Shown piece by piece: positions 37,176 through 37,946 of a stretch of 64,000 nt of DNA (positions are counted from its first letter, which is position 1; each line of letters starts with the position of its first letter). A program made the translations under genes and the position numbers. The notes beneath the pieces are model-generated. The model was given only the letters and a program-made list of their open reading frames with translations. It searched no databases and had not been told where the DNA came from. This DNA is from Leptogorgia sarmentosa (taxonomy: Eukaryota), in the NCBI GenBank assembly GCA_964658305.1, contig OZ210885.1, positions 124,001 through 188,000 on the forward strand, written 5' to 3'.

Positions 37176-37946
37176 CTATTTCTGATCTTTGGTGAGACCA
37201 TTTATTATGTTATTTAAACCTTGAAGAACTTGCTCGGTTGTGGGTTCATCGGGCCAACACACGCCATCTTTAGCGATATTCTCATTAATTTCTGGAGTAT
37301 CATTAATCAAAAATCCGCCAATTTTCAGAAAGAAGCCTTGCAAATCACATATCTGCTTGTAGTTATCCGGGGAAGAAGGTTGCATAAATTTGACGATTTT
37401 GTTTAGGTCATCTATGGTAGTTTGAAGTCCTTCCTTTGAAGTAAATTGTACGACATTTTGAATCAGCTCAGTGACGGTGTTTTTTGCTATATGATCACGA
37501 ACATGTCCAAACTCACCATCTGCCGTATCAATCCAGCGTTCCAAAAATCCACTGCAGGTTTCGTCTTCTGTTTCTCCGCACTTTACGTTTTCTATGGGAT
37601 GTATGTCCACAGTAACAATTTTGATATTTTCACCGCGTAGTTTCTCAAGGTTATCCAGCTCAGTTTTAATAATATCCTTACAAGGATATGAATATGAATT
37701 TTCTTCGTATGATAACGTCTTACAAACCAAAAATCCAATGGATGGTACGTCTTTCAGACGACAAGCAATCTTGTCATCTCCTTTTGCGACCTCCACACAA
37801 AATGTCGTATCGTATTTAATTTCGGAGCGCTTCTTGATTTCTTCACGAGCTCGGTCGAAATCGTCGGGTGATGGTATTGCACACCAAATGGTAGAAATTG
37901 ATAAAAACATGACAACAATAGCGAAAATTGGCTTATGTGCCGCCAT
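37176..37946 (-). CDS. Intronless secreted 256-aa protein with minimal protein-kinase-like motifs (HopBF1-like)
   Basis: ATG at 37946, signal peptide MAAHKPIFAIVVMFLSISTIWCA. Ordered motifs: VAKGDDKIAC (Gly loop), LVCK (beta3 Lys), IKTELDNLEKL (alphaC Glu), FLERWI (hinge), ICDLQGFF (catalytic loop), GGFLINDT (metal-binding Asp). Confidence 0.75.
   Translation of the reverse strand: MAAHKPIFAIVVMFLSISTIWCAIPSPDDFDRAREEIKKRSEIKYDTTFCVEVAKGDDKIACRLKDVPSIGFLVCKTLSYEENSYSYPCKDIIKTELDNLEKLRGENIKIVTVDIHPIENVKCGETEDETCSGFLERWIDTADGEFGHVRDHIAKNTVTELIQNVVQFTSKEGLQTTIDDLNKIVKFMQPSSPDNYKQICDLQGFFLKIGGFLINDTPEINENIAKDGVCWPDEPTTEQVLQGLNNIINGLTKDQK

Follow-up and report, generated by a model that had tools for sequence, protein, structure and literature searches.

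We lean toward reading P0001, a 256-residue coral protein encoded by an uninterrupted open reading frame (positions 37176 to 37946, minus strand, of the 64,000-nt stretch of DNA analyzed here, called the window below), as an active protein kinase of the secretory pathway or the cell surface and a distant relative of the bacterial effector HopBF1. This prediction draws on conserved kinase residues, on a hydrophobic leader followed by eight conserved cysteines, and on a modeled fold whose nearest solved structure is HopBF1. P0001 is encoded by a real, ordinary-looking gene, and its family, shared between corals and some bacteria, is apparently undescribed. A search that lay largely outside subscription journals found no literature joining HopBF1 and coral, none of the titles among the HopBF1 literature matches listed dealt with an animal homologue, and the main-text parts of two kinase-family surveys (PMC9758233 and 10.64898/2026.09.18.752743) do not describe the P0001 family. 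Twelve homologue accessions found no mention in article full texts, and those Pocillopora or Acropora accessions that were tried did not occur in the supplements of four coral papers, a result that is uninformative on expression.

Gene model and genomic context

P0001 aligned end to end with its bacterial homologues in a single tblastn segment, so its coding region consists of one exon, as the original prediction had proposed; an intron could still lie in the 5′ untranslated region. The reading frame is not a chance one, since a family search starting from P0001 returned 95 proteins at E values of ≤1e-3 among 330 candidates and since the dN/dS ratio, computed over 252 codons against a 72%-identical homologue in locus L008, is 0.30. 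Over five coral-type pairs, that of P0001 included, this ratio ranged from 0.12 to 0.66. Purifying selection acts on the gene, whose GC content is 0.39 versus 0.365 for the whole window. By tblastn, no second or tandem paralog was found within the 64 kb.

The gene lies in an animal context, with a SET-domain fragment of KMT5B (E value, 3e-20) and fragments matching Ig, MACPF, and galaxin-like sequences. Contamination of the window was ruled out by these animal neighbors, by the matching GC content, and by the coral-wide occurrence of the family. The features recognized in the kinase gene and around it are collected in Table 1.

TABLE 1 Features of the P0001 gene and its surroundings (window coordinates)
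Feature	Position	Strand	Basis or remark
CDS, predicted secreted HopBF1-related minimal kinase P0001	37176..37946	-	ORF, fold, profile match, dN/dS
Predicted signal peptide, residues 1 to ~23, hydrophobic core 7 to 17	37878..37946	-	Hydropathy; low-confidence model helix 6 to 21
Gly loop G56-x-x-K59, K59 at start of beta2, predicted ATP-binding Lys	37770..37781	-	Conservation; HopBF1 alignment
E96 on helix alphaC (H89-105)	37659..37661	-	Kept in 108/108; model helix; pairs with HopBF1 K-E-L-E
Catalytic loop D201-L-Q203, with the probable base and the first metal ligand	37338..37346	-	Aligns with HopBF1 D-L-Q
D216, likely metal-binding Asp, DFG equivalent	37299..37301	-	15 residues past D201, same in HopBF1
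Two putative AATAAA polyadenylation signals, ~270 and ~340 nt past the stop	36836..36909	-	Motif; chance level not assessed
Likely KMT5B/SUV420H histone methyltransferase gene	26508..30796	-	SET fragment at 28702..29031
Short inverted-repeat element	33067..33410
MITE-like element, ~360 bp upstream of kinase start	38309..38758		62-nt terminal inverted repeats, 92% complementary
Duplicated segment	39379..39702 and 42038..42358		2.66-kb spacing
Tandem repeat of ~200 bp	40200..40775		Three copies
Remnant, presumably GIY-YIG/Penelope-like	43194..43715		No Pfam match
Multi-ORF gene, candidate pore-forming defense or venom protein	44217..48320	+	MACPF match at 46770..47453 (E value, 1e-4)
Ricin-B lectin match within the MACPF gene	47931..48320	+	Weak match
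Two near-duplicate Cys-rich ORFs	51471..52720	-	Galaxin-like repeats matched in the one scanned

Leader, cysteines, and active-site residues

The leader of P0001 reaches its best 10-residue KD mean, 2.97, at residues 7 to 17, and the predicted cleavage site was placed by alignment to the A-D-D-F start of the family; signal and GPI calls are throughout based on a hydropathy heuristic. Cysteines occur at positions 22, 50, 62, 75, 89, 123, 131, 200, and 230, eight of them past the leader. Both the signal peptide and the eight cysteines of the mature part (Cys50 to Cys230) had been named in the original prediction and are borne out here, the former as a hydrophobic leader. The same holds for the absence of HRD, DFG, and APE motifs, with 40 residues beyond D216 where about 40 had been claimed, and for the order of the kinase landmarks, which run from G56, K59, and E96 to D201-L-Q203 and N215-D216. 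The lysine among these landmarks must, however, be revised: the conserved one is K59 by the Gly loop and not the canonical beta3 residue K76.

Conservation was scored over 108 near-full-length relatives of ≥220 residues, shorter fragments and the near-identical P0002 being left out; of these rows, 87 are coral-type and 21 bacterial, most of the former and several of the latter classed by their position in the tree. G56, K59, E96, D201, and D216 are kept in all 108 and Q203 in 107. Among 22 distant kin, described below, the catalytic D and Q and the position of D216 are always kept, and K59 is present in 21, the exception being an N-terminally truncated sequence. The beta3 residue K76 is kept in only 87/108 close relatives and 9/22 distant kin, a variability that rules it out as the catalytic lysine. 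Since K59 is invariant while K76 varies, the ATP-binding lysine of P0001 is most likely K59 at beta2. A lysine migrated to beta2 is used by WNK1 and POMK, in which it supports activity (passages of PMC10211241). The residues that characterize the PKL superfamily, namely, the lysine, the alphaC glutamate, the catalytic aspartate, and the metal-binding residues, are thus all conserved, with the lysine at beta2 and not at beta3.

Fold and homology to HopBF1

The AlphaFold2 model of P0001, built from a 54-row alignment (pLDDT, 91.7; pTM, 0.85), has the bilobed PKL fold. The top two Foldseek matches were Ewingella HopBF1 structures (6pwg, E value of 7e-7; 6pwd, E value of 9e-7; target TM score, 0.70), with the next match at 1e-3, and VIA-align over 48,161 chains again placed HopBF1 at the top (Z score, 14.5; root mean square deviation [rmsd], 3.6; 172/176 residues aligned; 15% identity). 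The runners-up among the best 50 VIA rows were RIOK3 (Z score, 10.0), Rio1 (9.7), POMK (9.2; rmsd, 4.3; 182 aligned), NleH1 (8.9), and OspG (8.8); Fam20 does not appear among the 50 VIA matches listed. Kinase-fold entries account for all 50 of these rows and for nearly all Foldseek rows among the matches listed. When a homologue from the bacterial clade was modeled, HopBF1 was once more the best Foldseek match (E value, 7e-8).

Searches of PDB sequences with P0001 alone or with close-family profiles returned no match, HopBF1 included, and the identity between P0001 and HopBF1 is 13 to 15%. A wide profile of 37 diverse members (A4) matched only HopBF1 in the PDB (8hoe, E value of 7.6e-6; 6pwd, E value of 1e-5; next entry, 0.19). 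In this alignment the D-L-Q motif pairs with the D-L-Q of HopBF1 and is followed by the next Asp at an equal spacing of 15 residues; in a weaker first segment, G-x-x-K pairs with the HopBF1 G-S-Q-K and the alphaC Glu with the HopBF1 Glu. A wide-profile match with paired motifs means that the resemblance is one of homology, and on this sequence evidence the P0001 family is distantly homologous to HopBF1. The likeness to HopBF1 that had been proposed from the DNA alone is thus upheld by Foldseek, by VIA-align, and by the wide profile, and of the comparisons proposed along with it (HopBF1, NleH, OspG, and Fam20C), HopBF1 came out closest among the structural matches listed.

Pfam and NCBIfam hold no meaningful family for P0001, for the members of the 54-row alignment, or for 39 distant kin: no HopBF1 model surfaced in these scans, and the sole kinase hint was an APH match (E value, 0.006) for the distant relative P0345. 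No usable match was returned by the ESM Atlas for P0001 or P0127. Nesting within a vertically inherited eukaryotic kinase family, which the original prediction had named as an argument against horizontal transfer, was not seen, there being no Pfam match and the next-best folds having Z scores of ≤10.

The family in corals

The named relatives in octocorals belong to Paramuricea (66% identity) and Xenia, with Dendronephthya added by cluster look-up, and those in stony corals to Porites, Oculina, Acropora, and Montipora, with Pocillopora added in the same way. P0001 itself likely belongs to an octocoral. No sea anemone, medusozoan, or bilaterian is among the named matches, which are a minority of all matches. 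The coral family is multicopy, several species having multiple paralogs, and broken copies lie on contigs L007 and L015 to L017. By hydropathy, a signal-like N terminus is present in 78 of the 87 coral-type rows, the other 9 being truncated at the start, and a GPI-like hydrophobic C-terminal tail is found in 45/87 coral-type and 0/21 bacterial rows; P0001 itself has no such tail. Neither conserved synteny nor a delivery partner was detected in the coral contigs or in the bacterial loci L001, L004, and L005. Two further loci, L002 (Variovorax) and L020, were rejected as short spurious pattern matches. On the coral-type contig L019, a 916-residue single-ORF fusion of LRRC8/pannexin-like, LRR, and caspase parts (positions 217 to 2967) stands directly upstream of a partial kinase copy.

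Bacterial relatives and distant kin

Profile and locus searches delineated a close bacterial clade of 21 proteins with 27 to 46% identity to coral rows, the named carriers being Raoultella, Cedecea, Klebsiella, Brenneria roseae, and Methylobacter. All 21 have a signal-like N terminus and all eight cysteines. The neighbors in L001, L004, and L005 are bacterial (serine carboxypeptidase, GroES, PlsY, and DprA) and differ between loci, and no secretion-apparatus genes were recognized there. Carriers are rare, with 1/400 genomes in a class sample and 1/201 in a family sample, each being the source genome itself. No related loci were found in viral contigs or phage records and BFVD gave no match at an E value of ≤1e-3, on which grounds a viral origin was rejected; three query proteins gave no credible match in plasmids.

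An exhaustive HMMER search yielded 120 representatives at E values of ≤1e-3, of which 39 near-full-length ones were examined. The representatives include distant kin with a D-[LF]-Q-G...D-P signature, among them a protein of Pseudovibrio ascidiaceicola and one sequence from a protist set (P0343, EukProt). A hydrophobic N terminus is present in 19/22 distant kin versus 11/224 internal control windows. In P0287, a protein of 374 residues, the C-terminal half of a bacterial-type kinase is fused to an unknown Cys-rich domain. In the Methylobacter locus L001, positions 2538 to 7734 encode on one strand a MakC/D-like gene (E value of 6e-20, below the curated cutoff), a 796-residue protein that matched nothing in Pfam, NCBIfam, or the PDB, the secreted kinase, and a 238-residue ORF lacking annotation, which together might form a secreted-toxin island.

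Predicted secretion and probable horizontal transfer

Predicted secretion is ancestral to the family, because a leader-like N terminus is found in all close bacteria and nearly all distant kin, at the counts given above. Since the leader and the cysteines are already present in bacterial relatives, with the full eight in the close ones, a re-targeting in the animal is not called for, and the donor would not have been a type III effector. The original view of an effector kinase re-targeted for secretion is in this respect contradicted. Its other half, horizontal acquisition, fares better: the distribution over corals and sporadic bacteria points to horizontal transfer between the two, which we consider likely, whereas the bacteria-to-animal direction that had been assumed is not what the rooted trees favor, since these place the bacteria among coral paralogs, if non-significantly.

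The unrooted tree separates bacteria and corals cleanly (100/100), and rooting on the distant kin unites corals and close bacteria in one group (97/97), which also have C200 in common, a residue present in 0/22 distant kin. In three rooted trees, none of which contains HopBF1, the close bacteria fall within the coral paralogs. The bootstrapped trees described next omit ten distant rows that had long branches or were incomplete. Monophyly of the corals was recovered in 0/200 bootstraps, both with 30 coral-type rows and with P0001 plus 10 coral-named rows (those that named a coral in their own record or cluster), and was not rejected by the AU test for either set (P = 0.114 and P = 0.090, respectively). 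None of the nodes nesting bacteria within corals is starred. Past the metal-binding Asp, 21/21 close bacteria and 85/87 main coral rows have D-x-P, and D-P is found instead in 20/22 distant kin, in 7/13 divergent coral-type rows, and in HopBF1.

On these sequence data the family may have passed from bacteria to corals once or twice, or from a coral paralog back to bacteria. As the bacteria are nested in coral paralogs, the latter course has to be reckoned with; the close bacterial clade would then stem from a coral paralog and have spread patchily in soil, freshwater, and enteric bacteria. We regard this as a serious possibility, albeit one we would not bet on. The nesting itself, the missing coral monophyly in the bootstraps, and the derived D-x-P common to close bacteria and main coral rows speak for it, but the AU test leaves coral monophyly standing, the outgroup is long-branched and could have let fast paralogs drift rootward, the relevant nodes are unstarred, and two separate bacteria-to-coral transfers would give an identical tree. 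Far less credible, and in our view quite improbable, is that eukaryotes inherited the family vertically from ancient times and mostly lost it, or that it is a scaffold without catalytic activity. A protist transcriptome set does supply at least one distant relative, and CLUH bears a dead HopBF1-like domain in eukaryotes (according to passages of PMC10041065), but the coral proteins are far nearer to bacteria (profile E values down to 1e-95) than to the protist sequence (E value, 2e-7), introns are absent from their coding regions, the named matches include neither bilaterians nor other animals outside the corals, and the catalytic residues are all invariant. Horizontal transfer is the likelier account, and the enzyme was probably already secreted when the family moved between bacteria and anthozoans. 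Its deeper origin is likely bacterial, but corals may be the source of the closest bacterial clade; the acquisition by corals would be old, because the family is present in both soft and stony corals.

Proposed function and alternatives

In the mechanism that we propose, the leader would take P0001 into the endoplasmic reticulum (ER), where four putative disulfides would stabilize its small fold. Lys59 of beta2 and Glu96 would hold ATP, Gln203 and Asp216 would bind metal, and Asp201 would act as the base. Because the C-lobe ends 40 residues past Asp216, the enzyme is proposed to recognize a folded protein substrate and not a peptide motif, as HopBF1, NleH, and OspG do, and phosphorylation of the target could take place in the lumen or mucus or on the cell surface. 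P0001 would be soluble, and many of its paralogs in stony corals would act as ecto-kinases tethered by GPI. The turnover of paralogs and the sharing with bacteria suggest a role of the family at the host-microbe or defense interface. Cytosolic HSP90, which HopBF1 phosphorylates and inactivates (passages of PMC9950578 and PMC8150971), is an unlikely substrate, because a secreted protein of the disulfide type, or a GPI-like one, would work in a different compartment.

The family might act on something other than proteins, as a secreted small-molecule or glycan kinase of the APH or POMK kind or as a RIO-like ecto-ATPase. APH and N-acetylhexosamine kinases come next after HopBF1 in Foldseek, as do RIO kinases and POMK in VIA-align, a surface-tethered or periplasmic site would suit sugars or extracellular ATP, and one such chemistry could be of use to corals as well as to bacteria living with plants or in soil. 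We nonetheless find this reading rather unlikely, because the APH matches are poor (rmsd of ~15, TM score of ~0.35), little modeled C-lobe is available past the metal-binding Asp for a small-molecule pocket, and the closest relative, HopBF1, is a protein kinase (passages of PMC9950578). Less plausible still is a toxin that gains access to HSP90 in the cytosol of a prey, competitor, or microbial cell and phosphorylates it, or, in a variant, acts on GRP94 in its own cell. Such an activity would fit HopBF1 being the nearest relative of solved structure, with every catalytic motif in common, the birth-and-death turnover with its broken copies, the MACPF-domain gene 6 to 10 kb from P0001, and the MakC/D-like gene of the Methylobacter locus. 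The low identity to HopBF1, however, weighs against it, as do the lack of any receptor-binding or translocation domain within the 256 residues, the eight invariant cysteines, which suggest an oxidizing compartment, and the anchor-like tail in about half of the coral-type members; moreover, a delivery partner conserved across loci was not found, and the MACPF protein of the window is unlike the large neighbor in L001. A secretory-pathway or cell-surface protein kinase is hence the reading that we retain for P0001.

Implications

Few animal kinase families are known to act in the secretory pathway, namely, Fam20/four-jointed, VLK, and POMK (as set out in parts of PMC7948968). The coral family of about 230 residues, likely braced by disulfides and including soluble and anchor-tailed members, would add a new secretory kinase family unrelated to the known ones. 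HopBF1, until now regarded as an effector that pathogens inject, would gain a wider and mostly Sec-secreted family. The family is also a candidate for a rare gene transfer from animal to bacteria. A bolder combination of these ideas, which we consider doubtful, would have corals use a class of secreted and GPI-anchored ecto-kinases of which one paralog passed to bacteria, HopBF1 being an injected offshoot of a mostly Sec-secreted superfamily; if true, a coral paralog founded a clade of secreted kinases now scattered in Raoultella, Cedecea, Klebsiella, Brenneria, and freshwater bacteria.

ATP is generally scarce in the bacterial periplasm, which bears on how the bacterial members work, and these prompt the question of where a secreted kinase of bacteria would encounter its ATP. 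The family is directly testable, since it is small and single exon, its catalytic residues are clear, and its bacterial carriers can be cultured.

Comparison with known kinases

HopBF1 (Pseudomonas syringae and Ewingella americana; 6PWD, 6PWG, and 8HOE) has the same minimal fold as P0001 with a truncated C-lobe, and both proteins have G-x-x-K, the alphaC Glu, D-L-Q, and an N-D 15 residues on. They differ in delivery, HopBF1 reaching the cytosol by type III secretion whereas P0001 has a Sec/ER-type leader and eight conserved cysteines, and in size, P0001 being longer by extra hairpins and an N-terminal helix, with GPI-like tails in many paralogs. In structure and motifs P0001 thus agrees with the HopBF1 family, but since the type III delivery feature is lacking, in P0001 as in the 21 close bacterial proteins, P0001 falls outside the HopBF1 effector family and represents a predicted Sec/ER-secreted variant of a HopBF1-related fold. 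NleH1 and OspG share the kinase fold with a truncated C-lobe, but their structural match is far weaker than that of HopBF1, no sequence similarity to them was found, and both are injected cytosolic enzymes. RIO kinases and aminoglycoside phosphotransferases have an atypical PKL fold (Z scores of 9.7 to 10.0 for the former, Foldseek E values of 2e-4 to 2e-3 for the latter), but they are cytosolic and have no motif-level identity to P0001.

Fam20C/four-jointed, VLK (PKDCC)/Fam69, and POMK are by inference the nearest counterparts in location, being signal-bearing kinase folds with lumenal or extracellular sites of action, and POMK likewise uses a beta2 lysine (passages of PMC10211241). None of them matched in sequence, either in Pfam (P0001, the 54 alignment members, and the 39 distant kin) or in the PDB. 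Compared with these families, that of P0001 is much smaller, has among animals been seen in this analysis only in anthozoans, and is shared with bacteria.
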